A stretch of DNA of 64,000 nucleotides, taken from assembly GCA_964545575.1 (NCBI GenBank), contig CAZJFL010000008.1, positions 18,171 through 82,170 on the forward strand. Direction: 5' to 3'. The translations under genes were made by a program, and so were the position numbers. This document shows, in pieces, positions 1,443 through 61,903 of this stretch (its first letter is position 1; each line of letters opens with the position of its first letter). The stretch is from an uncultured Planctomycetales bacterium. Its GTDB lineage: Bacteria; Omnitrophota; Gorgyraeia; Gygaellales; Profunditerraquicolaceae. The notes under the pieces were generated by a model that worked only from the letters and a program-made list of their open reading frames with translations, searched no databases and was not told where the DNA came from.

Positions 1443-1478
1443 AATCCCAAGTTTCAAAAAGGCTTGGGATTTTTATTT
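1443..1478 (+). terminator. Rho-independent terminator
   Basis: Stem AATCCCAAG/CTTGGGATT with an 11-nt loop, followed by a T-run, directly after the lipoprotein pair. Confidence 0.5.
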
Positions 1479-1492
1479 AGTGAGGTTATAAT

Positions 1493-1855
1493 ATGGCTGT
1501 GAGAAGGGAGGTAGGGATGAGTTCAACTACGGAAAAGGTATTCGGTTATATCCTGGTTTGTATCGGGCTGGTCTGTATATTATTTGCTTTCTATTCCGCA
1601 TATAATGTCTTTACCAACGCAGCCAATCCGCCGGAAGTGTTTCAGATGCGCAGTTTAGATATTGCGGTATCGCCTCCGGGAGCAGATAGCCAGCCTACGC
1701 AAATGACGATCAGCTTAGATGCGGAATTAAGAAAGACGGTGAATGTATTTTTATATTATTTGTTTATGCTGTTTATTGTAGTGGTGGGAAGTAATATCGG
1801 CAGTCTGGGGGTAAAATTTATCAAAGAGATAACGGTCAAAACGCCAAACCAATAA
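1493..1855 (+). CDS. Hypothetical small membrane protein
   Basis: Two predicted TM helices (ILVCIGLVCILFAFY; FLYYLFMLFIVVVG). No recognisable domain. Confidence 0.35.
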   Translation: MAVRREVGMSSTTEKVFGYILVCIGLVCILFAFYSAYNVFTNAANPPEVFQMRSLDIAVSPPGADSQPTQMTISLDAELRKTVNVFLYYLFMLFIVVVGSNIGSLGVKFIKEITVKTPNQ

Positions 1856-1890
1856 TCGTTGCTCGGGGATTAACCTTCCCCATTTCCCAG

Positions 1891-1932
1891 GCGCTTTCCG
1901 ATCTAATCGAGAAAGCGCGCCGCTAAGCAGTT
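1891..1932 (+). promoter_or_regulatory. Conserved hairpin motif copy 1 (GCGCTTTCC-gaTCTAAtcga-GAAAGCGC)
   Basis: Inverted repeat CTTTCC/GAAAG with a conserved TCTAA centre, lying about 20 nt upstream of the flavoprotein start. Two further near-identical copies are at 2612 and 3879. Confidence 0.5.
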
Positions 1933-1951
1933 AGGTTAAAAAGGGAGCTTA

Positions 1952-2611
1952 ATGATGAAAGTTTTACTTATATCGGTAAGCCCGCATAGGGAAAAGAGCA
2001 GTACATTTTTGTTAGCCGATGAAGTTCTGCGCGGGGTAAAAGATGAGGGCGCAGTTTGTGAGGTTTTGCACCTGGATAATTATAAGGTATTTTTCTGTAA
2101 GCACTGTGAGGCCTGTCATAGGAATATTCTGAAATGTTCATTGAAAGATGATGTTAATATGATTCTTCAGAAGATGCTTAATGCCGATGGCATAGTTTTA
2201 GCTTCACCTAACTACATAAATCAGGTGACTGCGTTGATGAAGGCGCTATTTGATCGCTCGGCTCACTTCATCCATTGTAAGCGTCTTTTGGATAAATATG
2301 TAGCAGGAGTGGTGACTTCCGGTAGCGGCCAGAATAAAGAAGTCTTGGACTATATCGCTTTCTACGGTCAGGTTTGCGGAGCGCAATATTCGGGAGGCGT
2401 TTCTGCTCTCCGGGAGTTTGGCGAGGAGAAGAAAGCCGAGGCTTTCAAATTAGGTAAAAAACTTGTGTCCGACATCAAAGATAAAAAACAGTACCCGCAG
2501 CAGATACAAACCATAGAGCAGGGAAAACAGCACTTAGCCCGAATCATTAAGCTGAGGAAGGATGATTGGCAAGAGGAATACAAATACTGGGCTGCAAAAG
2601 GTTGGCTATAG
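1952..2611 (+). CDS. Iron-sulfur flavoprotein / NADPH-dependent FMN reductase family
   Basis: Flavodoxin-like N-terminus MKVLLISVSPHREKSST. Compact Cys cluster CKHCEACHRNILKC (C-x2-C-x2-C-x5-C) typical of Isf-type flavoproteins. Confidence 0.6.
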   Translation: MMKVLLISVSPHREKSSTFLLADEVLRGVKDEGAVCEVLHLDNYKVFFCKHCEACHRNILKCSLKDDVNMILQKMLNADGIVLASPNYINQVTALMKALFDRSAHFIHCKRLLDKYVAGVVTSGSGQNKEVLDYIAFYGQVCGAQYSGGVSALREFGEEKKAEAFKLGKKLVSDIKDKKQYPQQIQTIEQGKQHLARIIKLRKDDWQEEYKYWAAKGWL

Positions 2612-2652
2612 GCGCTTTCCAATCTAATCGGGAAAGTGTGCCACTAAACAGT
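2612..2652 (+). promoter_or_regulatory. Conserved hairpin motif copy 2
   Basis: GCGCTTTCC-aaTCTAAtcg-GGAAAGTGTGCC, about 85% identical to copy 1. Lies between the flavoprotein stop and the ATG at 2662. Confidence 0.5.
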
Positions 2653-2661
2653 TCAAAATCT

Positions 2662-3189
2662 ATGCTTCACCTTAATCCCAATTCCCTCAAAATCGGCTAT
2701 GTAATTTTAGTGGCGACGAGGAAACCGGCGATAAGGACGCTGCAGAGAAAGGCAGGATACGGGGAGAGTGCAAAGTGGACGCATGTGGCAGGGTGCCTGG
2801 GAGGAGTGACGGCGATAGAGGCGAATGTGCCGCGTTCGCACCTGATAGATCTAGAGAAAGAATATGTAAGCCGGGGTTTTGAGATCAAGGTGATGAAGCG
2901 TAAGGCTCAGAAAGCAGAGGAAAGATATAAGGTCGCGCTCTGGTGGGCGACGATGAATAATCTGCCTTATGACGTGCTGCAATTTTTCTGGTTTCCTTTG
3001 TCGATTTTAAGTGGTAAAATCGGTATAGTTTTGCATAATATATTCAGCAGCAGAAAAAGATTTCTCTGCTCTGAGCTGATTGCTACCGGATTCTATAAAG
3101 AAGGGGATTATTGTTTCGAGAAGCCGGCGGAAAATGTTTTGCCGGCGGATTTTAATAATCCGGGATTATTTGAAGAGGTAGATAAATAG
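2662..3189 (+). CDS. Permuted papain-like (YiiX/DUF830-like, NlpC/P60 superfamily) protein
   Basis: Matches the YiiX family in WTHVAGCLG (cf. YSHTGM) and FLCSELIATGFYKEG (cf. QYCSEVVWKVY). The ORF track starts at 2566, but the ATG at 2662 lies just after motif copy 2. Confidence 0.45.
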   Translation: MLHLNPNSLKIGYVILVATRKPAIRTLQRKAGYGESAKWTHVAGCLGGVTAIEANVPRSHLIDLEKEYVSRGFEIKVMKRKAQKAEERYKVALWWATMNNLPYDVLQFFWFPLSILSGKIGIVLHNIFSSRKRFLCSELIATGFYKEGDYCFEKPAENVLPADFNNPGLFEEVDK

Positions 3190-3198
3190 GAGGAAGAG

Positions 3199-3540
3199 AT
3201 GAAAAAGATAATTGTATTACTGGTGCTGCTTCTGGCAGTGGCAGTGACAAGCGCCTATGCGCATACGCCGTCAGATATGAAGATTAGCTTTGACCCGGGG
3301 ACCAAGGTGTTAAAGCTGGTGATCATGCATGACACCCCTGATCCGGTTCTGCACTACATCAAGAGAGTGAACGTGGAATTAAACGGTAAAGAGGTCATTA
3401 ACGAAGAGTTCTCCCGCCAGGAGAATAATAAGAGTCAGACAGTCAGCTATACGATCCCCAATGCCAAGCCAGGCGATATTATTACGGTATATGTGCGTTG
3501 CAGCATCTTCGGAAGGTTGAAAAGAACGATTAAGATATAG
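3199..3540 (+). CDS. Hypothetical secreted protein
   Basis: Signal peptide MKKIIVLLVLLLAVAVTSAYA. RBS AGGAGG upstream. No recognisable domain. Confidence 0.4.
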   Translation: MKKIIVLLVLLLAVAVTSAYAHTPSDMKISFDPGTKVLKLVIMHDTPDPVLHYIKRVNVELNGKEVINEEFSRQENNKSQTVSYTIPNAKPGDIITVYVRCSIFGRLKRTIKI

Positions 3541-3557
3541 AGAAAGGAGGCAGTAAA

Positions 3558-3836
3558 ATGGCTAAGTTTTTCATGTACGGAAAGTATTCAGCGGAGGCGA
3601 TCAAGGGGATCTCGGCTGAGAGGACGAAGAAGGCAGTTGATCTGATCGCCAAGGCCGGCGGCAAGGTGAATTCTATGTACGCGCTGCTGGGAAAGTATGA
3701 CATCGTCTTGATCGCGGACTTCCCCACAGTGGCAGAGGTGATGAAGGCCTCGATAGAATTAAATAAGCTGACGAATATTTCCTTTACCAGCTTTCCTGCG
3801 ATCAGCATAGAGGAATTCGACAAGGTCACGGCGTAA
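3558..3836 (+). CDS. GYD domain protein
   Basis: N-terminus MAKFFMYGKYSAEAIKGIS and a length of about 90 aa match the GYD family. RBS AAGGAGG upstream. Confidence 0.6.
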   Translation: MAKFFMYGKYSAEAIKGISAERTKKAVDLIAKAGGKVNSMYALLGKYDIVLIADFPTVAEVMKASIELNKLTNISFTSFPAISIEEFDKVTA

Positions 3837-3878
3837 GCTTCTCTCAAGAGGGGGCTTTAAAAAAACAAGTAATCCAGA

Positions 3879-3917
3879 AGCTTTCTGCTCTAAATAGGAA
3901 AGTGTCTGGTTTAGCTT
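3879..3917 (+). promoter_or_regulatory. Conserved hairpin motif copy 3
   Basis: AGCTTTCT-gcTCTAAata-GGAAAGTGTCTGG. Same CTTTCY/GGAAAG stem and TCTAA centre as copies 1 and 2, about 50 nt upstream of the cupin gene. Confidence 0.45.
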
Positions 3918-3963
3918 AAGGGAATCACTGCAGCTAAATATTGCCGGGAAAGGAGCTAGCGAC

Positions 3964-4233
3964 ATGGAAATAAAAGTGCAAAAAGTTGGGGAAGATGAGC
4001 TGAAGAAGATGGGGGTCTTGGCATGGCCTATCTGGACAAAAGAAGTCTCGCGCTTTGACTGGCATTATGACTCGGTGGAGGAATGCTATCTTCTGGAAGG
4101 CGAAGTTATGGTAGAATCTAAGGATGGCAAAAGGGTGAACTTTGGCAAGGGGGATTTTGTGACTTTCCCCAAGGGCCTTTCCTGCGTCTGGGATATTAAA
4201 AAGCCCGTGCGCAAGCACTACAATTTCCGCTAA
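3964..4233 (+). CDS. Cupin domain protein (cupin_3/EutQ-like small barrel)
   Basis: ECYLLEGEVMVESKDGKRVNFGKGDFVTFPKG is a typical cupin beta-barrel motif. 89 aa. Confidence 0.6.
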   Translation: MEIKVQKVGEDELKKMGVLAWPIWTKEVSRFDWHYDSVEECYLLEGEVMVESKDGKRVNFGKGDFVTFPKGLSCVWDIKKPVRKHYNFR

Positions 4234-4246
4234 GGGGCTTTAGAGC

Positions 4247-4663
4247 ATGAAATCGCATAGCCAATACTTATGGTTTAATACCAAAAACCGGCAGGAGTTT
4301 ATCAATATCACGCTGCAGGTGGAAGAGGCACTGAAGAAAAGCGGGATCAGGGAAGGGCTTTGCCTGGTGAATGCGATGCATATCACCAGTTCCGTTTTTA
4401 TTAACGATGATGAAGCGGGGTTGCATAGCGATTTTAGCGACTGGTTAGAAAAGCTTGCCCCCTACGGCAAAGATAAATACCAGCATAACTTAAGTGGTGA
4501 GGACAACGGGGATGCGCACTTAAAAAGGACGGTCATGGGCAGGGAAGTGGTGGTAGCGGTTAGCGCAGGCAAACTCGATTTTGGGCCATGGGAGCAGATA
4601 TTTTACGGAGAGTTTGACGGAAGGCGTAAAAAGCGGGTCTTAATCAAAATTATCGGAGAGTAA
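4247..4663 (+). CDS. YjbQ/UPF0047 family protein (secondary thiamine-phosphate synthase-like)
   Basis: [24 protein letters not shown] and [26 protein letters not shown] align with E. coli YjbQ motifs. Confidence 0.7.
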
Positions 4664-4715
4664 GGACAAGGAGTATCCCGGTGAATCAAAATATTAAAGG
4701 AGGCAGAAGATAGAG

Positions 4716-5618
4716 ATGACGCATGCTTTAGAACACGGAGAAAAAGCGCAGATGACCGCCGTCCATAGCGCTATCGTAGCTTCGATGGTTATATTTTTGA
4801 TTATTTTAATCTGCGGTATCATGGCCGATTCTATAACCCTCCTGCTGGATGCTTCGGCGGAGTTTATTATTTTGCTTACTGCCTTTATCATGCGGGTGGG
4901 CATAAAAAAGATAAATCTGCCTCCAGATAATCTTTTTAATTTCGGGTATGATAAATATGAGCCTTTTATTGTGGTAATCCAGGGAGCGATGATAATGTTA
5001 TCCTGTGTTATTGCCTTAACCTTTGCCATCCAGGATATTATTCACGCAGACGATATAGTCCGATACGATATCCCGGTATTAGCTTCTTTGCTTTCCGGGA
5101 TAATCGCTGTGCTGGTCGCATTTTATCTGAAGAGAGTCGCCGTTAAGACTCGCTCGAGGGTATTAGGGGTTTCCAGCCTCCATTGGTTTATTGATAGCGC
5201 GCTGTCTTTTGCGATGTTCCTAGGTTTTTCCTTTGGCTGGTATATGTATAAACTGGGCTATTTCCGTATCACGCCTTACGTTGACCCCGTGATGGCGGTG
5301 ATCTTGGCGCTGGTCTTTGTCTGGACGCCGCTTAAGGCAATGAAAAATAGTTTTCGGGAGTTGCTCGACGCTACCCCAGAAAAAGACGTCCGCGACAAGA
5401 TAGAAAAAGTAATCGAAAGTCATAAGAGTAAGGTTTTCGGTATTCGTAGTATTCGTATGAGGAAGGCCGGGGAAAAGGTGTTTCTTTATATTTCTTTTAT
5501 TATTTACGGCTACACCACGATGACGCAGGCGCAGGAATTAACAAAGAGTTTCGAAAAGGACATTGCCGCGCTATTCCCCAAATATGATACCATCGTATAT
5601 TTTTATCCGGCGCAATAA
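4716..5618 (+). CDS. Cation diffusion facilitator (CDF) family metal efflux transporter
   Basis: Six N-terminal TM helices carrying the conserved ADS/D residues of the family, plus a C-terminal cytoplasmic cation-efflux domain (KVFGIRSIRMRKAGEKVFLYI). Confidence 0.7.
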   Translation: MTHALEHGEKAQMTAVHSAIVASMVIFLIILICGIMADSITLLLDASAEFIILLTAFIMRVGIKKINLPPDNLFNFGYDKYEPFIVVIQGAMIMLSCVIALTFAIQDIIHADDIVRYDIPVLASLLSGIIAVLVAFYLKRVAVKTRSRVLGVSSLHWFIDSALSFAMFLGFSFGWYMYKLGYFRITPYVDPVMAVILALVFVWTPLKAMKNSFRELLDATPEKDVRDKIEKVIESHKSKVFGIRSIRMRKAGEKVFLYISFIIYGYTTMTQAQELTKSFEKDIAALFPKYDTIVYFYPAQ

Positions 5619-5703
5619 AGTCAGGAATCAACAGAATCCGGGAGAGTTTCTTTAGATGCCAGGTTAGGCATTTTGGCACTTTCAGAGAAAGGGAGAGAAG
5701 GAA

Positions 5704-6204
5704 ATGGAACCTTTAGAAATACTTAAGATAAGAAGAAGTATCAGGGAATACTCGGATGAGAGAATAGCAAAAGATTTTTTAGAGAAAATAGTAGAGGCAG
5801 CCAGGTTTGCCCCCACTGCCAGAAATGTCCAACCTTGGGAGTTTATTGTCATCACCGAGACACCCACCTTAAAAAAATTCGCTGAATTAGCCGAGAACGG
5901 AAGATTCCTGGCCCAGGCCAAGGCCTGTATTGCGGTATTTTGCGCGGAGACAAAATATTACTTGGAAGACGGATGCGCGGCTACTTGTAATATCCTGCTT
6001 GCCGCGGCTGCCTTGGGTGTTGGTTCCTGCTGGGTTGCCGGGGATAAGAAACCTTATTGCGCCGAAGTTGCTAAAATTTTAAATGTGCCTATCGCCTATA
6101 AATTGGTGAGCTTGGTTGCTTTAGGTTACCCTAAATCCAAAGATAGTTTTCATCCTGCAGAAAAAAGAGGCTTAAAAGAAGTGATCCACTGGGAGAAATT
6201 TTGA
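5704..6204 (+). CDS. Nitroreductase family protein
   Basis: RRSIREY...APTARNVQPWEFIVI is the nitroreductase FMN-binding signature. Confidence 0.7.
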   Translation: MEPLEILKIRRSIREYSDERIAKDFLEKIVEAARFAPTARNVQPWEFIVITETPTLKKFAELAENGRFLAQAKACIAVFCAETKYYLEDGCAATCNILLAAAALGVGSCWVAGDKKPYCAEVAKILNVPIAYKLVSLVALGYPKSKDSFHPAEKRGLKEVIHWEKF

Positions 6205-6458
6205 ACGGCAAGAAAGGGTTCGTTTCATTATTGGGGCTGGTGATAACTTTGGGGATAATTTTATTTATGGCTTATGTTTTATTGAATAGTTATCTTAAGA
6301 TACCGTCAGCCGGGCGGGGAATTGATAATAGCGATATTATGCCGCAAACCGCTACACCAGGCATTCCTTACCGCTCTATTGTGGACAGCACTAAAAGCAC
6401 CTTAGAGAGTATTGAGAAAGAGCATCAAAAGCAGCTGGATGCCGCGGTAGGGCATTAG
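6201..6458 (+). CDS. Hypothetical small membrane protein
   Basis: Single TM helix GFVSLLGLVITLGIILFMAYVLL. Start overlaps the upstream stop. Confidence 0.3.
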   Translation: MNGKKGFVSLLGLVITLGIILFMAYVLLNSYLKIPSAGRGIDNSDIMPQTATPGIPYRSIVDSTKSTLESIEKEHQKQLDAAVGH

Positions 6459-6478
6459 AGCAGGAAAAGGGGCAAAAA

Positions 6479-6916
6479 ATGAATATTAAACGGATAATAG
6501 CTAAGGAAGGGCTGATTATTTTAGGATTGTCTATTGTATTATATCTTTTTATCTTTCTTTTTCTAAGAAATATGCCTGTTGCATTGCCAAAATACAGGTT
6601 GGAATTTGCTAACGGAGAAATACGCACCATTATTATAAATCCGGAGATCCGCAATGATTCTAATTATAACAAACTTTTAGAAGAAGCATATAATCCGCCG
6701 CCAAAACTCATTGAGAAACGCATTAAAGAATTTATAAGGGCGGGTAATATTAAATCTGCCTTAAAAAGCTCAAGCTGTATAAATTCTTACCAGGTTTATA
6801 TATCTAAATTATATAGCTACCTTCTCGGCGTAACATTTATTTTAAAATTAGCCATTATCTATCTTATTTTGCTATTCGCCCGCTTCGCCGTCTGGGCCCT
6901 GAGAACATTGAAATGA
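6479..6916 (+). CDS. Hypothetical membrane protein
   Basis: N- and C-terminal TM helices. No recognisable domain. Confidence 0.3.
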   Translation: MNIKRIIAKEGLIILGLSIVLYLFIFLFLRNMPVALPKYRLEFANGEIRTIIINPEIRNDSNYNKLLEEAYNPPPKLIEKRIKEFIRAGNIKSALKSSSCINSYQVYISKLYSYLLGVTFILKLAIIYLILLFARFAVWALRTLK

Positions 6917-7010
6917 AAATTTGGCCGCTTACTAAGATAAAAAGAGTTACAAAGAATTTTTTAAAAGACTCCGTAAATTACGGAAAGTCGTCTATCGGGA
7001 TTTTGTCGGT
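6917..7010 (+). repeat. About 90-bp direct repeat, copy A (contains palindrome CCGTAA-A-TTACGG)
   Basis: AAATTTGGCCGCTTACTAAGATAAAAAGAGTTACAAAGAATTTTTTAAAAGACTCCGTAAATTACGGAAAGTCGTCTATC... is about 85% identical to 7893..7985. Confidence 0.6.
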
Positions 7011-7090: not shown

Positions 7091-7453
7091 ATGGTTAAAA
7101 TTTTAGTTGTAGATGACGAAAAGGACATAGTTGAATTTTTCGGCCGTATTCTACGCAGAGAGGGATTTGAAGTTTTCACTGCTAGTAGCGGAGAAGATTG
7201 TTTGAGGATGGCTGAAACAGGGCGCCCGGATTTGATACTGCTTGATATAAATATGCCCGGAATGGACGGAGGGGTTATCAGGTGTAATTTAGAAAAGAAC
7301 GAAAAAACAAGGAATATCCCCATAATATTCTTAAGCGCTTTGGTTACCAAGGAAGAAGAGGGAAACATCCAGGGGCATTTATTTATTTCTAAATCAACCG
7401 GCAAAGAAGAAATTATTAAAAAAATAAAAGATGTTTTAAACCTAAAGAGCTAA
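7091..7453 (+). CDS. Stand-alone CheY-like response regulator receiver domain
   Basis: KILVVDDEKDIVEFF...DLILLDINMPGMDG...IIFLSA carries the receiver-domain Asp pocket and the phospho-acceptor D. No output domain. Confidence 0.75.
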   Translation: MVKILVVDDEKDIVEFFGRILRREGFEVFTASSGEDCLRMAETGRPDLILLDINMPGMDGGVIRCNLEKNEKTRNIPIIFLSALVTKEEEGNIQGHLFISKSTGKEEIIKKIKDVLNLKS

Positions 7454-7856: not shown

Positions 7857-7892
7857 ATCGTAGTAAGTAATCCCTATCCCCAGTTAATAAAT

Positions 7893-7985
7893 AAAAATTT
7901 GGCCGCTGGCTAAGATAAGAAAAGCGATAAAGAATTTTTTAAAAGACCCCGTAAATTACGGAAGGTCATCTATCAAGATGCTGAT
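7893..7985 (+). repeat. About 90-bp direct repeat, copy B
   Basis: Near-identical to 6917..7010, including CCGTAAATTACGG. Lies immediately upstream of the ORF at 7978. Confidence 0.6.
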
Positions 7986-8301
7986 TTCGTTAATTCAGGA
8001 TAAGGCCCTTGGCATCAAAGCCTGCGCTTACTATTTCCCGCAAGACACCTTAACTTTCGTTGATGCCGCCAGGATCAACCTCAGGAAAGCAAAATCAAAT
8101 CATACGCCCGTTGAGATCGTCGATAGCGATGCCGCTGTGTTTGAGGCTAAAGAGGGGACGGTGTTTTTTATGTTTAATCCTTTCGGAAAAATGACCCTGG
8201 AGAAAGTGATCAAGAATATCCGGCAAAGCCTGCTCACAAACCCGCGAAAGACCCACATAGCATATTATTGCCCGGTATATAAAGATTTATTGGATGCGTA
8301 G
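7978..8301 (+). CDS. Hypothetical protein; possible remnant of an N-methyltransferase (FNPFG motif)
   Basis: VFFMFNPFGKM resembles the (D/N)PP(F/Y)G motif IV of RsmD/RlmL-type methyltransferases. No motif I (GxGxG) is present, and the N-terminus abuts repeat copy B. Confidence 0.25.
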   Translation: MLISLIQDKALGIKACAYYFPQDTLTFVDAARINLRKAKSNHTPVEIVDSDAAVFEAKEGTVFFMFNPFGKMTLEKVIKNIRQSLLTNPRKTHIAYYCPVYKDLLDA

Positions 8302-17290: not shown

Positions 17291-17432
17291 TATTAATGAA
17301 ATAGAGGTAAATAAGGGAGTGGAAATTCTGGAACCGTAAGGTGTAAGATTTAACTCGCCTTGCGGTTTTTTTACAGGTTCTGCCATTATTTACTATCTAG
17401 TAAAAATTTCAAAAGGAAGGAGGTAGTAAGTA

Positions 17433-17633
17433 ATGGCAAAAGGTAAAGTAAAGTGGTTCTCGAACCAAAAAGGTTATGGGTTCATTACCCCTGAAGACGG
17501 CAAAGATGTATTCGTGCATCATACCGCGATTCAGGGCGAAGGCTATAAGTCCTTAGAGGAAGGCCAGGAAGTTGAGTTTGAAATCGAACAAGGCCCTAAG
17601 GGCGAACAGGCTACGAAAGTAGTAAAACTCTAA
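17433..17633 (+). CDS. cspA: Cold-shock protein (CspA family)
   Basis: [30 protein letters not shown] carries the RNP1/RNP2 motifs of the cold-shock domain. Confidence 0.9.
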
Positions 17634-17655
17634 CTATCTTACAGAACGCGACAAG

Positions 17656-17688
17656 AGGCCCGGTTAATTTCAACCGGGCCTTTTTCTT
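17656..17688 (+). terminator. Rho-independent terminator
   Basis: Stem AGGCCCGGTT/AACCGGGCCT with loop AATTTCA, followed by TTTTTCTTTC. Confidence 0.6.
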
Positions 17689-17738: not shown

Positions 17739-20700
17739 ATGATGTTAATGTTAATAGTTTCTATAGGTGTTGCTTCCTTGGGCCTTTTAGTCTACGGCCT
17801 CTGGCCAGCTGCTGCTTCGGGAAGAAAAAAAACAAGCAGGAGGCCGGCGGTCTGCCTTAAGCCTAATGTAGGGCTCCAGCAGCAGGATCCGCGCCTTAGG
17901 ATGCAGTCAGAGATAGAATCCTTAAAGAACAGCCTGGCGCAGGCAGAGGCGCAATTTAATCAGGCAAAAAAAGAAATGGAGCCATTACGGCAGAAGGAGT
18001 CAGAGTTAAAAGAAGCGCTCCAGAAGCGGGAAGAATGGTTTAAGAAAGAGGAACAGAGTATTGCCGCATTACAGGAGGAGAGGGTAAGACAGGATAAGGA
18101 GTTAAGAAATAAAGAAGACGAACTGGCCCAGGAGTTTACCAAGAATGTGGATTTAAAGCGGCAGGCAGAGCAGCTGAGGTTAAAATACGGCTCCCTGGAG
18201 GAGGAGGGTAAAGGTAAGACCGAGGAGATAGAAAAACTCAAGCATAAAGTAGCCGCCCGCGAGGAGGAGATCAAGAACCGTGAAGAAAAGATAAAGTCTT
18301 TAGATAAGATTATCGCAGGGATGAAGAAAAAAGAATCGGAAAGCGAATGGGTCTCCAAGCGCGATTTTAACAGCCTCAATGATGAATACACGAACTTAGA
18401 AAAAGAACTGGAGGAGAAGGAAGAAAAAATAAAGGAGAGAGAAGATAAGCTTAAGGAATTGGCAGAGCTAATACAGCAACTAAAAAGTCAGGCGCCTGAA
18501 AAAGCCGCAACCCCAGAAGTGCCCGTACCTCTGCCTCCGGCAGAAACCGCCATACTCCTGGAACAGCTTGTTCCGGAGGAACAACCCGTCCCGCAGGAAC
18601 AACCCGCAGTAGAAAAAAAAGAAGAAGCGCCCCCGGAAGAGGCTGTGGCAGAAACTGAAGAGGTAGCCAGAGAGCCGGAACCAAAGGCTCCCAGAGAACG
18701 CATTCAGCTTCCCGAGGTGCACTTGGAGAAGATGCGTAATATCGGAATTATGGCGCACATTGATGCCGGCAAGACCACCCTCACCGAAAGGATCCTCTAT
18801 TATACCGGGCGTACTTATAAACTGGGGGAGGTGCATGATGGTAAAGCCACCATGGACTGGATGAAACAGGAACAGGAGCGCGGTATTACCATTACCGCAG
18901 CCGCAACGACCTGTTTCTGGAAGGATTTCCGGATTAATATTATTGATACTCCCGGGCATGTGGATTTTACGGTAGAGGTGGAAAGAAGCCTGCGCGTCTT
19001 AGACGGGGCGGTGGCGGTATTTTGCGCCGTAGCCGGGGTGCAGCCGCAATCGGAGACCGTTTGGCGGCAGTCCAATAAATACGCAGTGCCCAAGATCGCC
19101 TTTGTAAATAAAATGGACCGCGTGGGAGCGAATTTCGCTAACGTCGTCAAGGGGATAGAAGAAAAACTACAGGCCCATCCGGTTCCGGTACAACTTCCCC
19201 TCCTCGTAGAGGAAAAGTTCAAAGGCATTATCGACCTGATCAATATGAAAGCTTACATGTTTGACGAAGAATCCCTGGGGAAGGAGTTTAGCGTCGAAGA
19301 AATTCCCGCCGATTATTCAGGGAAAGCTAAAGCCGCCCGGCACGAGATGATCGAGAGAGTCGCCCATTTTGACGATAACCTCATGAAAAAACACCTGGAG
19401 GCAGGCGATACTATCACGGCTGACGAAATAAATAATGCCATCAGAAATGCAACTTTGGCTAATCAGGCAGTGGCGGTTTTATGCGGCTCGGCTTTTAAGA
19501 ATAAGGGCGTGCAGCAGCTTCTGGATGCGGTAACCCTGTATCTACCTTCTCCTTTAGACGTGCCTGTGGAAAAAGGGACGAGCATAGACAATCCGGAAAA
19601 TTTTTTAAAAAGGCGCCCGGATATCAACGACCCCTTCTCTGCGCTGGCTTTTAAGATACAGGCAGACCCGCATATGGGAAAACTGGTGTATATCCGCATC
19701 TATTCCGGATACCTGGAAACCGGCTCTTACGTCTTAAACGCCACCAGAGATAAAAAAGAAAGAATCGGCAGGATAGTCAAGATGCACGCCGATCAGAAGG
19801 AGAACGTCGATTACGCCTATGCCGGAGAGATTGTGGGTTTAATCGGGCTCGGTCAGACAATTACCGGGGACACGCTTTGCGATGAGTCTAGCCCCATAAT
19901 CCTGGAAGCGATAAAATTTCCGGCGCCGGTAGTCTCTTTAAGCATTGTTCCCAAGACCCGCCAGGATCAGGATAAATTAGGCCGGGCTTTAGGCAGGCTG
20001 ACCGAAGAGGACCCTACTTTTATCGTGCAGACCGACGAAGAGACTAAAGAGACCCTGCTGACCGGGATGGGGGAGTTGCACCTGGAAATCATCGTAGACC
20101 GGCTTAAAGAGGAGTTTAAGGTGGACGCGATCGTCGGCCAGCCCAAGGTCGCCTATCGCGAAACGATTACTAAGATGGTAAGCGAAGAATACAAGCACAT
20201 AAAACAATCCGGAGGCCGCGGCCAGTATGCTCACGTGGTGATTGAGATGTTTCCTCAGGAAGCAGGCCATGGTTATGAGTTTGTGGATAACATCAAAGGC
20301 GGGGCGATCCCCAGAAACTTTATTCCCTCGGTAGAGAAGGGAATCCTGGCAGCGATGGAGAAGGGCCCTTATGCGGGATATCCGGTAGTGGATTTAAAAG
20401 TCAACCTGATCGACGGTTCTTATCATGAAGTAGATTCTTCGGATATCGCTTTTAAGATTGCGGCTATCGAATGTTTTAAAAGCGGTTTTCGTAAGGCCGA
20501 GCCGATTTTGCTTGAGCCGTATATGTCGCTAGAGGTGACGACACCCGAAGAATACGCTAATACCATTGTCGGTTATTTATGTTCTAGAAGAGGCAGGATC
20601 GTCAATATAGAGCCGCTAGGGCTTAACCAGAAAGTTATCATGTCTGAAGTGCCTTTATCCGAAATGTTCGGCTATACGACTAATTTAAGATCTTTAAGCA

Positions 20701-20810
20701 GCGGAAGGGCAAGCGGGATGATGGAGTTTAAGCGTTATCTTTCGGTGCCCAAAGAAATCACCGCGAAAATCCTTGAAGAGATAAGAAAAAAGAAGGAAGA
20801 AGAGAGGTGA
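17739..20810 (+). CDS. fusA: Elongation factor G with a roughly 325-aa N-terminal extension (TM helix, coiled coil, Pro/Glu-rich linker)
   Basis: From the internal [16 protein letters not shown] onward it is a full-length EF-G ([33 protein letters not shown]). The N-terminus has a TM helix ([17 protein letters not shown]), about 200 aa of heptad-rich E/K/R coiled coil, and a PEVPVPLPP.. linker. Confidence 0.8.
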
Positions 20811-23258: not shown

Positions 23259-23993
23259 ATGCGTTACTTAATCATTACCGCGATAATTCTTTTTTTAGTG
23301 CTGGTTTTTTTGGGCGGGGTTTTTACCGTATTTTTCGACCAGGCGGTCCTGGTCAGAAAAGGCACAGTCTATCGGATTCCCGCCTCCCAGAAGGTGGTGG
23401 CGCTTACCTTTGATGACGGCCCCTCGCCTGTATGGACCCCCCGTATCTTAGATGAACTTAAGAGAGCAGGGGTAAAAGCGACATTTTTTATGTTAGGTAA
23501 ACACGTCGCAGAGTTTCCTGAAGTTGCCCGGCGCGTGGCTAGAGAAGGGCATGAGATTGAAAACCACAGTTTTACCCATCATGTTTTGCTTTATTATAAA
23601 ATGGATGAATTGGAAAAAGAAGTAAAGGATGCCGAAAAAATAATCAAGGACGTTACCGGAAAGACTACAAAATATTTCCGGCCACCGAAAGCCTGGGTTA
23701 CGCCGGAAGAAAAAATTAAACTGCAGGAAATGGGGTATCAGGTAATCCTTTGGTCGTTAAATTCAAAAGACTGGGTGACCTTTCACGACAAACAGATTCG
23801 TCATTATATCCTCTACAATATCAGGCCGGGAGACATAATCCTGTTCCATGACAGCGGAGGCGTCTTTACCACCGAAGGCGGAAGCCGTAAGCAGACGGTA
23901 AAGACGCTTGTCCCCCTGGTGCAGAAGCTAGAAGAACGGGGATATAAAATAGTCACGGTCGAAGAACTCTTAAAAACATATTCGGAAAAATAA
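23259..23993 (+). CDS. Polysaccharide deacetylase (NodB homology domain)
   Basis: TFDDGPSP...ATFFMLG...HEIENHSFTHH matches the NodB catalytic motifs. N-terminal TM anchor. Confidence 0.75.
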   Translation: MRYLIITAIILFLVLVFLGGVFTVFFDQAVLVRKGTVYRIPASQKVVALTFDDGPSPVWTPRILDELKRAGVKATFFMLGKHVAEFPEVARRVAREGHEIENHSFTHHVLLYYKMDELEKEVKDAEKIIKDVTGKTTKYFRPPKAWVTPEEKIKLQEMGYQVILWSLNSKDWVTFHDKQIRHYILYNIRPGDIILFHDSGGVFTTEGGSRKQTVKTLVPLVQKLEERGYKIVTVEELLKTYSEK

Positions 23994-25642
23994 TGATGAA
24001 GAATGAAACCTTAAAGAATATAATATTTTTGTTGCTGTTGTCATATCTATTTCTTATGTTCGGCAACGGCATCTTAAGCCTGACTAACCCCGATGAGGTT
24101 TTCTATGCCCAGACCGCTAAAGAGATGGTCCAGAAGAACAGCTGGATGACGCCGTATTTATTCGGCCAGCCGCAGTTTGAAAAACCGATACTGCTTTATT
24201 GGCTGATGCGGTCAGGCTTTTTAGTTTTCGGCATAAACAGTTTTTCCGCGCGCTTTTTCCCGGCATTATTTGCGATCCTGGGGGTAATCGCGGTTTATCT
24301 TTTAGCACTCATCGGTTTTAAAAATGAAAAGAAAGCATTTTTATCCGGGCTGATTGCGATGTCTTACGGTTTATATGTAGGGCTGGCGCACTCGGTCTTT
24401 ACCGATATGCTATTTTCGGTGCTCGTGCTTTTTTCGCTGGTTTCATTCTTTTGGGCATACAGCGAAAAAAAATACCGGCGCTTAGGTATATACTTGTTTT
24501 TTATCTTCTCGGGGCTGGCGGTTTTAGCCAAAGGGCCTTTGGGATTTTTAATTCCTTTTGCGGTGGTATCCGTATTTTTACTCTGGCACCGGGATATAAA
24601 GTTTGTTTTTTCTAAAGACTTCTTCTTCGGGGGAGTCATCTGCCTGGCCTTAGCCCTGCCCTGGTATATATTGATGGTTAAAAAATACGGCTCGGTGTTT
24701 ACCTACGAGTTCTTTTATAACGACCACTGGCGCAGAATCATTGAGGCCGAGCACCTTGCCAATGACACCTGGTATTTTTACCCGGTGGCTATGATCGGCT
24801 GCATGTTTCCCTGGAGCGTTTATGTTTTGGGAGGCCTGGCATATCTTTTTTTGCGGTTAAAACGGGCTACCTCGATGCTGCATCTGTTTCTAGCCGCCTG
24901 GATCATCGCGGTGTTATTAATTTTTCAGTTCGCGCACTCAAAGCTAGTGAGCTACATTTTTCCTTTATTTCCAGCCTTAAGCTTAATCACCGCCGATTTT
25001 ATTTACGATTTTAGCACGGGCGAAAATAAGCGGCCCCTGCGGACAGCCTCGCTGATTACCGGCTTTATCCTTTTTTGTATCCCGGCCGGCTTATTGGTCA
25101 GTTCACGGATATTTTCCGCTTACATCCCCTCCAAGGCGCCGCTTTACTTTTTGGCGCTTTTGCTGCTGTTTCTCGCCGGTTCATTTTTGATTTTTTCTCT
25201 TAGGGGTAAGTTTATTAAAAGTGTTTATACGCTGATGCTGGTAATTCCGCTGATTTTGCTTTTCCTGCCTTTTGTAGCGCAGGATGCCGAGCCGTATATT
25301 TCTTCCAAAGCCGCCTGCGATTATCTGCTGAAAAATTACGATGTCAAGGGCACGATACTGTGTTCCAAGTTTTTTGCCCGGGGGGTAAGATATTATACCG
25401 GCAGGGAGGTTGCGGTGATTGATATTAACGGTAAAAATTTCTTTAGCCCCCACCCCATACCATTCTTTAGTACCATGGAGGAGGTAAAGGTTTTCCTGCG
25501 CGGCCAGGGCCCGGTTTACGGGGTCTTAAAAAAATCTGCGCTGGTCAGAATCAAGGAATTGCCGGAAGAAGAATTTAGCTACAGAGTTTTAAAACTTATA
25601 GGCGACGAATATCTCGTCAAGATGGAGGTTAAGAATAGGTGA
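23993..25642 (+). CDS. GT39/ArnT-like glycosyltransferase (PMT_2 family, polyprenol-phosphate sugar dependent)
   Basis: First-loop motif NPDEVFYAQTAKEM...PYLFGQPQFEKPILLYWL and about 12 TM helices, as in the ArnT/PMT family. Confidence 0.7.
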   Translation: MMKNETLKNIIFLLLLSYLFLMFGNGILSLTNPDEVFYAQTAKEMVQKNSWMTPYLFGQPQFEKPILLYWLMRSGFLVFGINSFSARFFPALFAILGVIAVYLLALIGFKNEKKAFLSGLIAMSYGLYVGLAHSVFTDMLFSVLVLFSLVSFFWAYSEKKYRRLGIYLFFIFSGLAVLAKGPLGFLIPFAVVSVFLLWHRDIKFVFSKDFFFGGVICLALALPWYILMVKKYGSVFTYEFFYNDHWRRIIEAEHLANDTWYFYPVAMIGCMFPWSVYVLGGLAYLFLRLKRATSMLHLFLAAWIIAVLLIFQFAHSKLVSYIFPLFPALSLITADFIYDFSTGENKRPLRTASLITGFILFCIPAGLLVSSRIFSAYIPSKAPLYFLALLLLFLAGSFLIFSLRGKFIKSVYTLMLVIPLILLFLPFVAQDAEPYISSKAACDYLLKNYDVKGTILCSKFFARGVRYYTGREVAVIDINGKNFFSPHPIPFFSTMEEVKVFLRGQGPVYGVLKKSALVRIKELPEEEFSYRVLKLIGDEYLVKMEVKNR

Positions 25643-26772: not shown

Positions 26773-28875
26773 ATGGTGGGATTTGATCTCTTGCTGCTGG
26801 CGCCGGTGGGCTCTATCCTGGCAATTTCTTTTGCGGCCTACTTAGCTCTCTCTATCTTAAGAAAAGACCAGGGCAATGAGCGCATGCAGGAGATTGCCCG
26901 GGCAGTAAGGGTGGGGGCAAGGGCATATTTAAAAAGGCAGTACCTGGGCGTAGCTATATTTTTTATCGTAGTTTTCTTTATTTTATTAGCCTTAGCGCTA
27001 AAAAAATACCTGGTTATCTTTGTCCCCTTTGCCTTCCTGACCGGCGGCTTTTTTTCCGGCTTGTCCGGATTTATCGGGATGAGCATTGCCACCCAGTCTT
27101 CTAACCGCACCGCGGCAGCGGCAATGAAGAGTTTAAACTCCGGATTACGCGTGGCTTTTTCCAGCGGCGCAGTGATGGGCCTGACCGTGGTGGGATTAGG
27201 GCTGCTGGATTTAAGCATCTGGTATTATTTCTTGAACTGGTATTATTCCGCGCACCCTATTCTTATCGGTACGGATAAAATCACTGCGATTACTTCTACT
27301 ATGCTTTGTTTCGGCATGGGCGCTAGCTCTCAGGCATTATTTGCCAGAGTCGGCGGAGGCATCTTTACCAAAGCCGCGGACGTAGGAGCGGATTTAGTGG
27401 GTAAGGTAGAAGCCGGGATTCCCGAAGATGACCCGCGCAACCCCGCGGTGATCGCGGATAATGTCGGGGATAATGTCGGTGATGTCGCAGGCATGGGCGC
27501 CGACCTTTATGAATCTTATGTCGGCTCGATTGTAGCGACTTCTGCCTTGGGTGTGGCTGCCGGTTTAGGGGTGGCCGGCGTTACTGTGCCGATGGTGATG
27601 GCAGCGGTAGGAGTAATTGCTTCAATTATCGGCACCTTTTTTGTCAGAAGTAAAGAAGAGGCTACCCAGTCAGTTTTATTAGCGGCCCTGAGAAAAGGCG
27701 TCTTTGCTAGTTCAATACTAGTGGCTATAATTTCTTATTTTTTAGTCAGGTCTACCTTAGGCGTTCAGCACATGGGCGTCTACTGGTCGGTGCTGGCAGG
27801 ATTAGTTGCCGGCGTAATCATCGGCCTGGTGACGGAGTTTTACACCTCAAGCGGTTTTAAGCCCACACGTTCCATTGCCGACGCTTCTTTAACCGGCCCG
27901 GCTACGGTGATTATCGCAGGGATTGCCGTAGGGATGATGTCTACCGCCATACCGGTGATTGTAGTAGGTATGGCTATATTGGCGAGCTTTTTCTTATCTG
28001 GCGGAGCAGCAAATGTCAATGCCGGGCTTTACGGTATCGCCATTTCTGCGGTAGGCATGCTTTCTACCTTAGGGATAACTCTGGCTACGGATGCTTACGG
28101 GCCGGTAGCGGATAATGCCGGAGGCAATGCCCAGATGGCGAATTTACCCCCCGAGGTCAGAAAAAGGACCGATGCCCTGGATGCTTTGGGCAATACCACT
28201 GCTGCTACAGGCAAGGGTTTTGCCATTGGTTCCGCGGCATTAACCGCCCTGGCATTAATCGCTGCTTATAAGGATCAGGTCTCCTTATACGGCAAAGAAA
28301 TGAACTTAAGCCTGATGAACCCCAATGTACTGGTGGGATTATTTATCGGAGGGATGCTTCCCTTTTTCTTCTGTTCTATGACCATGCGCGCAGTAGGCCG
28401 GGCAGCAGGAAAAATTGTGGTCGAGGTGCGCCGGCAATTTAAGGAAATAGCCGGGATTATGGAGGGTAGAGCCTTGCCTGATTATGCGCGTTGCGTGACT
28501 ATCGCTACCGCAGCGGCGCAAAAAGAGATGATCGCGCCCTCACTGACGGCAATCATTGCGCCTATCGCGATAGGGCTGCTGATCGGCATTGATGCGGTGG
28601 CCGGGCTTCTCACCGGAGCTACGGTATCCGGTTTTGTCCTGGCAGTGATGATGGCTAATTCCGGCGGCGCCTGGGATAATGCCAAGAAGTATATCGAGGA
28701 GGGCCATTACGGAGGTAAAGGATCTTTTGCGCATAAGGCAGGGGTAGTCGGCGATACCGTAGGAGATCCCTTTAAAGATACCTCCGGCCCGAGCTTAAAC
28801 ATCCTGATTAAGCTGATGTCTATGGTTTCCATTGTTTTTGCCTCTTTCATCATCTCCAACACCCTCTTCAAATAA
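26773..28875 (+). CDS. hppA: Membrane-bound proton/sodium-translocating pyrophosphatase
   Basis: [22 protein letters not shown] and the multiple TM helices typical of V-type PPases. Confidence 0.9.
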
Positions 28876-28932
28876 GGGACAGTTCTTATCCTAATCGAGG
28901 GACGTTTCTTCAGTTAATCGGAGAAGTGTCCC
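28876..28932. repeat. REP-like palindromic units (GGGACRYTTCTY family), left flank of RAYT
   Basis: GGGACAGTTCTTA and GGGACGTTTCTT in one orientation, and GAGAAGTGTCCC in the opposite orientation. Confidence 0.6.
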
Positions 28933-28945
28933 TTTATAATTATAG

Positions 28946-29467
28946 TTAGAGATTCGGGACGGGGTCCAACAGTTTTGATTTTATATTTAATGATCTATAT
29001 TTCCAACTGCTCCACATATAATCGAGGGGGGAGGAAATCAAGTTCGCCCTCAGAGGGTTATATTCAATATAATTTAGGCAATTAATAAGGTACCTATCCT
29101 TCTGGATGACCGTGCTTTTAAATCTCCCTTGCCAGAGATGCCCTACCTTGGCGTATTTCTTATTGAACCAAAGTGTATAAGTTAGCGCTACGCCTTGCAT
29201 AATCTTAGCCAGATCGTTTACTTCTTTGACTTCCACAATTAAATGGATATGGTTGGGCATTATACAATAAGCATATAACTTGAAGTTGTATTTCTTTTTA
29301 TAATGTAGTAAAATCTGTAAATATCTTTCAAAGTCAACATTTTCTCGAAAGACATTTTGTTTTTGATTTCCGCGTTGAATAATATGATAGCAAATATCTG
29401 ATATAAGTAATCTTGGTCCTCTAGGCATATTAATCACCTCCATAATAATAGACGAAAATAAAGTCAT
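28946..29467 (-). mobile_element. IS200-like HuH Y1 transposase, REP-associated tyrosine transposase (RAYT) type
   Basis: HuH motif (HIHLIV), catalytic Tyr region, and the HIIQRGN/YCIMPNH motifs of Transposase_17. Flanked on both sides by inverted GGGAC-type palindromes. Confidence 0.75.
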
Positions 29468-29494
29468 TTTCTAACATAAAAAATTTTCCCCTCA

Positions 29495-29551
29495 GGGACA
29501 CTTCTCGCTTTGGCTTAAGAAACGGCCCTTGTTTGGTTCAAGAAACGTCCC
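29495..29551. repeat. REP-like palindromic units, right flank of RAYT
   Basis: GGGACACTTCTC, AAGAAACGGCCC and AAGAAACGTCCC. These are reverse complements of the left-flank units. Confidence 0.6.
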
Positions 29552-29600
29552 TAAGTTTTTGATGTTTTCTTCCGGATTTTAGTGGTATAATTAACTCGTC

Positions 29601-55838: not shown

Positions 55839-55875
55839 GCCGGGAATTGCTGTAACACAAGTAAGTATTCAACTT

Positions 55876-55909
55876 GGGGACATTTCTTAAACCTTTTAAG
55901 AGTGTCCCC
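55876..55909. repeat. REP-like hairpin (GGGGACATTTCTTAA ... TTAAGAGTGTCCCC)
   Basis: Inverted GGGAC-type units of the same family as the RAYT flanks, between pilin genes. Confidence 0.55.
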
Positions 55910-55922
55910 AAATATTTCTCTT

Positions 55923-59602: not shown

Positions 59603-60744
59603 AGAGAACGCAAGATATCGAAGTCTCGGTGGTGCTACCTTGTTTGAACGAAGAACAGGCAGTAGGCGCCTGCATTAAGAAGATTAAAGAAGTATTTGCC
59701 CGAGAGGGAATCAGGGGAGAAATTATTGTTGCCGATAACGGCTCAGTCGACCGCTCAAGGGAGATTGCCGAGAGAGAAGGGGCGAGGGTTGTATCCGAGC
59801 CGCAAAAGGGTTACGGCGCAGCGTATCTTGCGGGGTTAAAAGAAGCCAGAGGAAAATACATCGTCATTGCCGATAGCGATAACTCCTATGATTTTTATGA
59901 CATACCCAAGTTCCTGGTGCCATTAAAGGAAGATTATGATTTTGTGATCGGCTCAAGATTCAAGGGTAAAATCGAGAAAGGCGCGATGGCCTGGCCGCAC
60001 CGTTATATCGGCAATCCCGTTCTTTCCGGAATGACCAGGGTTTTTTTCCATACCCGCCTTTCGGATATTCATTGCGGAATGCGCGCCTTTACGGCTGAAG
60101 CATACCGTAAAATGGATTTGAAGAGCTTGGGCATGGAGTTTGCTACCGAAATGGTGGTGGCAGCTTTACAGAACGGTCTTAAGATACGCGAAGTTCCTAT
60201 TGATTATCATCTGCGCCGGGGTAAATCAAAACTGCTTCCGCTATCCGATGCCTGGCGGCATATCCGTTTTATGCTGCTTTATTCTCCGCTCTGGCTTTAT
60301 TTTATTCCGGGAATGTTGGGGTTCGGCTTAGGGATGTTCATTTTATTGTTGTCGGCCAAAGGCCCGTTCATGTTTTTGGGTCGTTCCTGGGACCTGCATG
60401 TCATGGTTTTTGCAAGTAGCCTCTGCATCCTTTCGTATCAAATCTTAAATCTCGGGGTGTATGCGCATTCATACGCTATTTCCCAGGGTTTTCTGAAAAG
60501 CGAGCCGTTGATGGCGTTTTTTCAGCGTCGCTTCAGCCTTGAGAAGGGCATTCTGCTGGGAGCGCTTTTTTTCTTGTCCGGACTGGTGATCAATATCGTT
60601 ATATTCATAGAATGGTTTTCCAATAGCTTCGGTCCGCTATACAGGATACGCGAGTCTATTTTGGCAATGACTTTTTTGGTTATCGGCCTGCAGACCATCT
60701 TTTCTTCTTTTTTTATCAGCCTTTTATTTTTAAGGAAGAGATAA
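59593..60744 (+). CDS. Polyprenol-phosphate glycosyltransferase (GT2, DPM1/GtrB/ArnC-like, C-terminal TM helices)
   Basis: VSVVLPCLNEE...IIVADNGSVDRS...DSD GT-A fold with a DxD motif, and four C-terminal TM helices as in GtrB. Confidence 0.75.
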   Translation: MGIERTQDIEVSVVLPCLNEEQAVGACIKKIKEVFAREGIRGEIIVADNGSVDRSREIAEREGARVVSEPQKGYGAAYLAGLKEARGKYIVIADSDNSYDFYDIPKFLVPLKEDYDFVIGSRFKGKIEKGAMAWPHRYIGNPVLSGMTRVFFHTRLSDIHCGMRAFTAEAYRKMDLKSLGMEFATEMVVAALQNGLKIREVPIDYHLRRGKSKLLPLSDAWRHIRFMLLYSPLWLYFIPGMLGFGLGMFILLLSAKGPFMFLGRSWDLHVMVFASSLCILSYQILNLGVYAHSYAISQGFLKSEPLMAFFQRRFSLEKGILLGALFFLSGLVINIVIFIEWFSNSFGPLYRIRESILAMTFLVIGLQTIFSSFFISLLFLRKR

Positions 60745-60762
60745 ATAAACCTTATTTCCGCA

Positions 60763-61902: not shown

Positions 61903-61903
61903 T

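Follow-up and report, generated by a model that had tools for sequence, protein, structure and literature searches.

Conserved intergenic hairpins in a Candidatus Omnitrophota contig as probable REP singlets of a RAYT system

The window analyzed here, a 64,000-nucleotide (nt) stretch of contig CAZJFL010000008.1 (assembly GCA_964545575.1), carries three copies of a conserved hairpin at 1890-1921, 2611-2642 and 3874-3909, all on the plus strand. We regard these copies 1-3, with good confidence, as singlets of a repetitive extragenic palindrome (REP) family that would form, together with a REP-associated tyrosine transposase (RAYT), a REP/RAYT system in a Candidatus Omnitrophota bacterium, the phylum to which the named homologues of two flanking proteins belong. 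The hairpins are members of a family that also makes up the flanks of a RAYT gene in the same window; its helix covaries, its members are dispersed, and it is absent from orthologous sites. The copies were most likely spread by, or co-evolved with, a RAYT, whereas mobilization by that enzyme, and any effect at the RNA level, we infer by analogy only.

All three copies are imperfect hairpins of 32-36 nt in direct orientation with the core GCTTTCY-NN-TCTAAWYN-RGAAAGYG, and they occupy spacers of 96, 50 and 127 nt between small plus-strand open reading frames (ORFs). Copy 1 (GGCGCTTTCC GATCTAATCGA GAAAGCGCGCC; 53.9 bits) lies between an ORF at 1493-1855 and an FMN-reductase gene at 1952-2611. Copy 2 (55.2 bits) begins with the final G of that reductase gene's TAG stop codon and ends 20 nt before an ATG at 2662, and copy 3 (52.9 bits), with the outer stem CCAGA/TCTGG, lies between a GYD gene (3558-3836) and a cupin gene (3964-4233). 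The first-pass annotation, made from the letters of the window, had placed three hairpins here, and the places were confirmed by pattern matches, shuffles and a covariance model. The pattern CTTTCYNNTCTAAWYNRGAAAG matches the plus strand exactly three times against 0.41 expected, a count reached in 0 of 100 shuffles, and the covariance model R1, built from eight canonical copies (alignment A1), scores the three at 53-55 bits (E~1e-13). The description of the copies as near-identical suits copies 1 and 2, which have 47 nt in common, but not copy 3, whose outer stem differs by compensating changes. The sequences around the three are unrelated to each other.

As the first-pass annotation had held, the hairpins are not generic terminators: no T-run follows any of the three, in agreement with the earlier statement that a U-tract is missing, and none is among the predictions of a terminator scan of the window. 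Rfam gave no match at the hairpins at either gathering or permissive thresholds. They point the same way as the genes of a co-directional string (~1493-6916) that has a promoter-like site at 1464-1492 and no terminator or further strong promoter predicted before 7039; because they lie inside this string, the hairpins are probably transcribed. Pfam identified FMN_red, GYD, Cupin_3 and UPF0047/YjbQ among the neighboring genes, which include a nitroreductase as well, so that most of the earlier gene calls stand; the ORF after copy 2, then called a permuted papain-like protein, has no Pfam match.

Each hairpin has a conserved loop, AATCTAATCGG (CCGATTAGATT when read from the complementary strand), framed by two half-sites of ~12 nt that form either the inverted pair GRCGCTTTCC / GGAAAGTGTC or the variant pair GGGACRYTTCT / AGAARYGTCCC. 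Eighteen family members were aligned (A4); their 14-bp helix is 82% paired, and both-sided changes occur at seven pairs in 24 cells. On each of three measures, namely percentage paired, count of both-sided cells and covariation score, the alignment exceeds all 500 shuffles and all slid controls, which supports the helix. One pair is a G·U in 14 of the 18 members. The best-conserved part of the family is the loop (CCGATTAGATT), while the stem drifts with compensation. In the loci L039 and L046 among those compared (numbered with the prefix L), for instance, the stem has changed to GGGACACCC but the loop has kept the sequence CCGATTAGATTA, which is reverse-complementary to the loop of copies 1-3. 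Predicted RNA folds have energies of -12 to -17 kcal/mol; for the DNA folds the values are -6 to -12 kcal/mol (z-scores -2.5 to -3.8). Owing to the conserved G·U (G·T) pair, the written strand of copies 2 and 3 and of the RAYT flank forms a more stable fold than the complementary strand, whether as RNA or as DNA. This strand asymmetry suits equally a single-stranded DNA (ssDNA) enzyme that distinguishes the strands and an RNA hairpin on the sense transcript. We conclude that the hairpin is probably a specific structure recognized by a protein, as the earlier annotation had proposed, beside an RNA regulatory hairpin, from the joint conservation of stem and loop.

Three other identities for the motif were considered and rejected. 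In one frame it reads (A/T)LS(N/D)LIGKV followed by a stop within ~12 codons, and the motif opens a 30-aa ORF in L008 and overlaps the end of an ORF in L005. A coding remnant was rejected, however, since the reading keeps no consistent frame relation to the neighboring genes, and we treat it as a by-product of the conserved sequence. A mariner-type miniature transposon was dismissed, as a TA target-site duplication surrounds copy 2 only. The arm and spacer lengths do not fit a Xer/dif-like 11-6-11 site, and no recombinase is present.

The motif is not confined to these three places. Run unfiltered over the whole window, R1 detected a fourth member, in diverged form, at 28895-28943 (23 bits, E=3e-4), and the broader model R2 found six members, starting at 1884, 2605, 3871, 28895, 29484 (minus strand) and 55873. 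The members outside 1890-3909 thus span 28895-28943 (+), 29484-29532 (-) and 55873-55919 (+). The last of them has its hairpin (GGGGACATTTCTT AAACCTTTT AAGAGTGTCCCC; 29.2 bits, E=2e-5 with R2) at 55875-55912 (+), in the spacer between two pilin-like genes, and all six members sit in spacers between genes. The half-site itself is commoner in the window than expected, with 12 matches against 3.4, and 0 of 100 shuffles reach 12. A hairpin at 61687-61708, inside the glycosyltransferase ORF 60763-61902, scored 13.8-15.3 bits and was not counted as a member.

Beyond the window, a scan of metagenome contigs found the core acGCTTTCYNATCTAATCGGGAAAGTG in near-identical form on four unrelated contigs from two samples; three contigs of a single sample other than that of the window have the exact core. 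A pattern scan of a genome collection that does not include the source genome returned two matches, and a scan of viral contigs gave twelve loose matches, none with the extended core; both results are at chance level. Canonical copies in L004, L005, L007, L008 and L035 have unrelated surroundings: one lies ~190 nt downstream of a tmRNA gene (L004), one where a small basic ORF ends (L005), one after a BamE-like lipoprotein gene (L008), and two form a tandem pair at a contig end (L007). A canonical-type copy in L035 (17369-17417; 39 bits with R1) has the direction of its neighbor genes, and the copies in L004, L005, L008 and L035 are intergenic as well. Inverted doublets are found in L004 (~75 nt apart), L035 (12764-12845) and L039. 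Nine of the ten singlets are oriented like the gene upstream of them. The member at 28895-28943 lies between convergent genes, those of H+-PPase and ORF 28946-29467.

Two further repeats were seen next to canonical copies. In L004 (1-250, minus strand), after the REP doublet and downstream of the tmRNA gene (418-850), the direct half-sites GGAAAGCGTCTGTTTAT, GGAAAGCACCTGTTTAT and GGAAAACGTTTGTTTGT recur at a spacing of 25-30 nt in a run that reaches the contig end. The run looks like iterons or arm-type sites and lies beside a classical hotspot of island integration. In the window, a canonical terminator hairpin (AATCCCAAG...CTTGGGATTTTTATTT) at 1443-1471 (+) overlaps the promoter-like site at 1464-1492, and a 17-nt identical stretch of it lies in a hairpin found twice in L005 (355-395 and 843-883), where the pair brackets the small basic ORF and the canonical REP copy. 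The hairpin shared by the window and L005 may represent a second repeat family.

The gene that links the family to a transposase is ORF 28946-29467 on the minus strand, 25 kb from the three hairpins, which encodes a RAYT-like Y1/HUH transposase of 173 aa (PF01797, E=9e-20; the recorded form has 160 aa and starts with MPRGPRLL). Its best NCBIfam model is NF047646, 'REP-associated tyrosine transposase' (79.1 bits), and with the IS200 model NF033573, whose cut-off is 55, the score is 28.5 bits. The sole PDB match is 4ER8, the E. coli TnpA-REP, with the HUH motif HIH aligned to HMH and the YxxxNP motif YIEYNP aligned to YIYINP. The gene lies between 64-nt inverted arms (28870-28933 and 29494-29557) that are 73% complementary, each of which comprises one family hairpin and one extra half-site. 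The 3'-side arm (28870-28938, +) contains the hairpin GGGACGTTTCTTC AGTTAATC GGAGAAGTGTCCC, which scores 56.7 bits with R2 and 23 with the canonical-only model; its outer half-site AAGGGACAGTTCT is at 28874-28886, and the arm overlaps the stop codon of the H+-PPase gene. The 5'-side arm (29491-29557, -) contains the hairpin AGGGCCGTTTCTT AAGCCAAAGC GAGAAGTGTCCCT (43.3 bits with R2) and the outer half-site AGGGACGTTTCTT. Because the family forms the inverted flanks of a RAYT gene, the protein partner of the hairpins is most likely this transposase and not a transcription factor for redox or stress genes.

The arrangement recurs in relatives. We collected 418 homologues of the RAYT; those that are named come from Omnitrophota, and nearly every cluster is on a single contig. 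In L035 (83% identity) and L037 (73%) the gene occupies the same slot as in the window, in the order H+-PPase / RAYT / ECF sigma / 234-aa ORF / CHAT-TPR / BNR, and its flanks are built from GGGACRYTTCT half-sites as [>][>][<] upstream and [>][<][<] downstream. In L039 and L046, whose RAYT has 58% identity, doublets lie on both sides of the gene, and in L008 an exact canonical motif is located on the opposite strand 5 nt beyond the stop codon of a RAYT homologue, in the same geometry as in the window. Judging from these loci, the RAYT appears to be a single-copy gene that is passed on vertically and keeps its place in the chromosome. Pfam scans covering practically all window ORFs of at least 135 aa found no integrase and one transposase-like gene only, and otherwise describe an ordinary chromosomal region (EF-G, GreA, IspH, H+-PPase, PEPCK, acetate kinase/PTA, type IV pilus and glycosyltransferases). 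Five contigs of other samples match the window at 100% identity, and no integrase or transposase was called in the 7.4 kb upstream of it (one identical contig and L006).

The genes next to copies 1-3, in turn, occur in relatives without the motif. FMN-reductase orthologues with 84-89% identity (L009-L013, L026 and L027) have no motif on either side and stand in different neighborhoods, after nrdR or after a second FMN_red gene; the orthologues of the ORF after copy 2 (L033 and L034) have other neighborhoods, likewise without the motif. Short palindromes nevertheless border the reductase orthologues: an inverted pair of half-sites of the family, GGGGCGTTTCTA...TAGATCGTCCC, lies upstream of the gene in L011 (9720-9798) and also in L012 and L013, and in L027 a different hairpin (TAGAACGRGGTGYYCTAA) is located on both sides of it (100-150 and 830-870).

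How such copies could arise is suggested by characterized relatives of the enzyme. TnpA-REP and the IS200/IS605 enzymes recognize a hairpin folded from a single DNA strand, next to which they cleave and religate the DNA. By analogy, the RAYT would bind the folded hairpin on the one strand that the G·T wobble allows to fold well, and would cut and rejoin beside it, so that copies would be seeded into intergenic DNA while the RAYT gene itself would stay single-copy and vertically inherited. Copies transcribed within the gene string would then form stable hairpins in the mRNA, where they may play a secondary role: they could shield upstream segments from 3' exonucleases, and the hairpin of copy 2 could disturb termination at the stop codon that it abuts. 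As products of a REP/RAYT system, the copies would not be a control element common to the neighboring genes.

Several observations weigh against this assignment. The GTAG tag typical of the hairpin foot is absent, the foot reading ARRC/GACG; this excludes the GTAG super-family, though not the REP/RAYT kind as a whole. The RAYT of the window falls 0.9 bit short of the curated NF047646 cut-off of 80. Its flanks carry the variant GGGACGTTTCTT... and not the exact type of copies 1-3, and the exact canonical type is found beside a RAYT only on one flank in the truncated contig L008. Given the variant flanks, the cognate enzyme could be a second RAYT elsewhere in the genome, which may be the true partner of copies 1-3. 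The six members come from the ~71 kb examined of the source genome, and three of the six lie within 2 kb. In addition, copies 1-3 are direct singlets, whereas the mobile unit proposed in other bacteria is an inverted doublet, and we infer the cleavage, mobility and transcription of the hairpins from sequence.

Among the alternatives, a dedicated intercistronic RNA element, selected as an mRNA stabilizer or as the target of an RNase or RNA-binding protein and tied only historically to the RAYT flanks, is unlikely. In its favor, all three copies and nine of the ten singlets follow the orientation of the upstream gene, the G·U pair of 14 of the 18 members pairs on the mRNA-sense strand only, the RNA folds reach -12 to -17 kcal/mol, and, as no promoter or terminator is predicted within 1493-6916, the copies are probably transcribed; in the published view, many REPs are transcribed and act as RNA (PMC3733652). 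On the other hand, a G·T wobble would mark the strand equally well for an ssDNA enzyme, the orthologous spacers of relatives are without the motif, Rfam has no match, and inverted units around a transposase gene make a common RNA role unlikely. An RNA role is, besides, compatible with the REP/RAYT assignment as a secondary effect and not exclusive of it. Very improbable, and largely refuted, is the operator of a dimeric transcription factor, with a regulon of redox or stress genes, that the first-pass annotation had proposed. The motif is indeed a conserved inverted repeat with a fixed 10-nt spacing, and FMN reductase, cupin, YjbQ and nitroreductase genes are among the neighbors, but no promoter-like site accompanies the copies, copy 2 adjoins a stop codon, and the outer stem covaries rather than being conserved, in a strand-specific orientation. 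The regulon itself fails on the orthologues of the flanking genes that are without the motif, on the copies after tmRNA and lipoprotein genes, on the member between convergent genes and on the RAYT flanks.

Integron-like attC sites, or sites of another tyrosine recombinase, would make the FMN-reductase gene one cassette and the three-gene module another. An attC site has R''/R' boxes (RYYYAAC...GTTRRRY), a variable center and a length of 55-140 nt, and an IntI integrase is encoded nearby. Small, unrelated, co-oriented genes separated by direct imperfect hairpins with bulged bases recall such an array, as do the different neighborhoods of the FMN-reductase gene across genomes and the tails of copies 1 and 2, which end in CAG|TT like a G|TT crossover point. 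Yet no integrase of any kind is found from -7.4 kb to the end of the window, no RYYYAAC/GTTRRRY boxes were seen by eye at the hairpin ends (an outer TTAACCT/AGGTTAA pairing exists at copy 1 only), and the hairpins, at 32-36 nt, are shorter than the minimum of 55 nt. Their conserved part is the center and loop, the opposite of attC, and it is their sense strand that folds better, while recombination at attC uses the bottom strand. The five same-strain contigs have no cassette polymorphism; the attC explanation is scarcely credible. Equally little can be said for accidental clustering or for a leftover of local duplication, the latter of which was raised with the first-pass annotation: three copies do lie within 2 kb, two of them with a long stretch in common, but their flanking sequences are unrelated, 0 of 100 shuffles reach their count, and the members at 28.9, 29.5 and 55.9 kb and in other metagenomes and genomes refute it. 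An extension of the REP/RAYT assignment, which we hold to be quite improbable, is that what the RAYT reads is not a GTAG foot but the loop (CCGATTAGATT) and the fixed G·T wobble, and that direct singlets bracketing accessory genes mark the capture or shuffling of gene modules by the RAYT/REP system, like ssDNA integron cassettes. It is prompted by the position of the FMN-reductase gene between copies 1 and 2 and by the inverted half-sites that precede its orthologue in L011-L013.

The region holds further features apart from the hairpin family. A direct repeat of ~86 nt (87% identical; 6911-7000 and 7889-7974, +) occupies the spacers before a response-regulator gene (7091-7453) and an ORF at 7978-8301. 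Within it a small hairpin, CCGTAAATTACGG, precedes a T-rich minus-strand run, and the repeat has no copies among the other loci compared. An Rfam match to the cspA-thermoregulator (17313-17685, +; 80 bits against a threshold of 78) lies directly upstream of the gene for a 1023-aa EF-G-like protein (17739-20810, +), in which the EF-G domains start at residue ~331 after a long N-terminal extension. In L029, positions 5089-6500 (3.0-1.6 kb upstream of window position 1) hold a gene for an N6/N4 DNA methyltransferase next to a 176-aa ORF; the two probably form a restriction-modification pair and belong to a series of small accessory genes extending into the window. The genes at 23993-25642, 57089-59602 and 59593-63061 (+), for a PMT-family mannosyltransferase-like protein, an STT3/PglB-type oligosaccharyltransferase and three adjoining glycosyltransferases, suggest a protein-glycosylation locus.

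The REP assignment, having been tested, replaces an attractive but wrong regulatory one, and would add a REP/RAYT system from a phylum, Candidatus Omnitrophota, for which metagenomes supply nearly all that is known. Since the family combines differing stems with one shared loop and a fixed wobble, it offers a natural series for asking what a RAYT recognizes. For annotation, conserved intergenic hairpins should be compared with the flanks of local RAYT genes before they are named riboregulators or operators.

In our literature searches, no account of repeats of this type in Omnitrophota came to light. The family was compared with known systems. The CGTC-tagged REPs of Di Nocera et al. (2013) likewise have CGTC/GACG at the hairpin foot (GACGCTTTCC). 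In those REPs the tag is unpaired, the stems have 8-9 bp and the loops 4-5 nt, a CCA tail follows, and no transposase is associated (PMC3733652), whereas here GACG is paired within a stem of 13-15 bp, the loop has 8-10 nt and a RAYT is associated; these differences in stem, loop, tag and transposase rule out membership in the CGTC family. The IS200/IS605 elements and their hairpin-bearing miniatures also have an enzyme of the PF01797 superfamily and subterminal hairpins recognized on one strand. Their own ends, however, are two unlike structures on the same strand, in contrast to the inverted repeats that flank the RAYT of the window, and the low NF033573 score and the apparently single-copy, syntenic state of the gene further exclude an ordinary IS200 insertion sequence.

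The closest known case is that of the RAYT-like 'TIRYT' genes, which are flanked by inverted repeats with a common GGGGWSAS (Di Nocera et al. 2013, PMC3733652); repeat families of this type are moderately abundant and occur as dimers or clusters (PMC3733652). Judged by the published description, our system is alike in its long inverted repeats around a RAYT-like gene, which are not GTAG REPs. The half-site GGGGACAC(TTCT) of L035, L037 and window position 55877 fits GGGGWSAS. The RAYT flanks of the window read AGGGACAC, one mismatch away, and the canonical copies (GRCGCTTTCC) have drifted further. From the REP/REPIN and RAYT systems at large, such as the E. coli REP-BIME with TnpA-REP/YafM and the REPINs of Pseudomonas fluorescens, the family differs in having no GTAG foot tag, in its 12-nt half-sites, in the three half-sites on each RAYT flank and in a loop (CCGATTAGATT) that is the most conserved part while the stem compensates. 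RAYTs are single-copy and vertically inherited (PMC5581495). Except for the GTAG foot tag, every feature that could be examined matches the REP/RAYT kind: short, imperfect, dispersed extragenic palindromes that lie mostly downstream of genes, that occur as singlets (with inverted doublets in L004, L035 and L039), and that flank, as inverted repeats, an apparently single-copy, vertically inherited Y1/HUH transposase gene nearest to the RAYT models.

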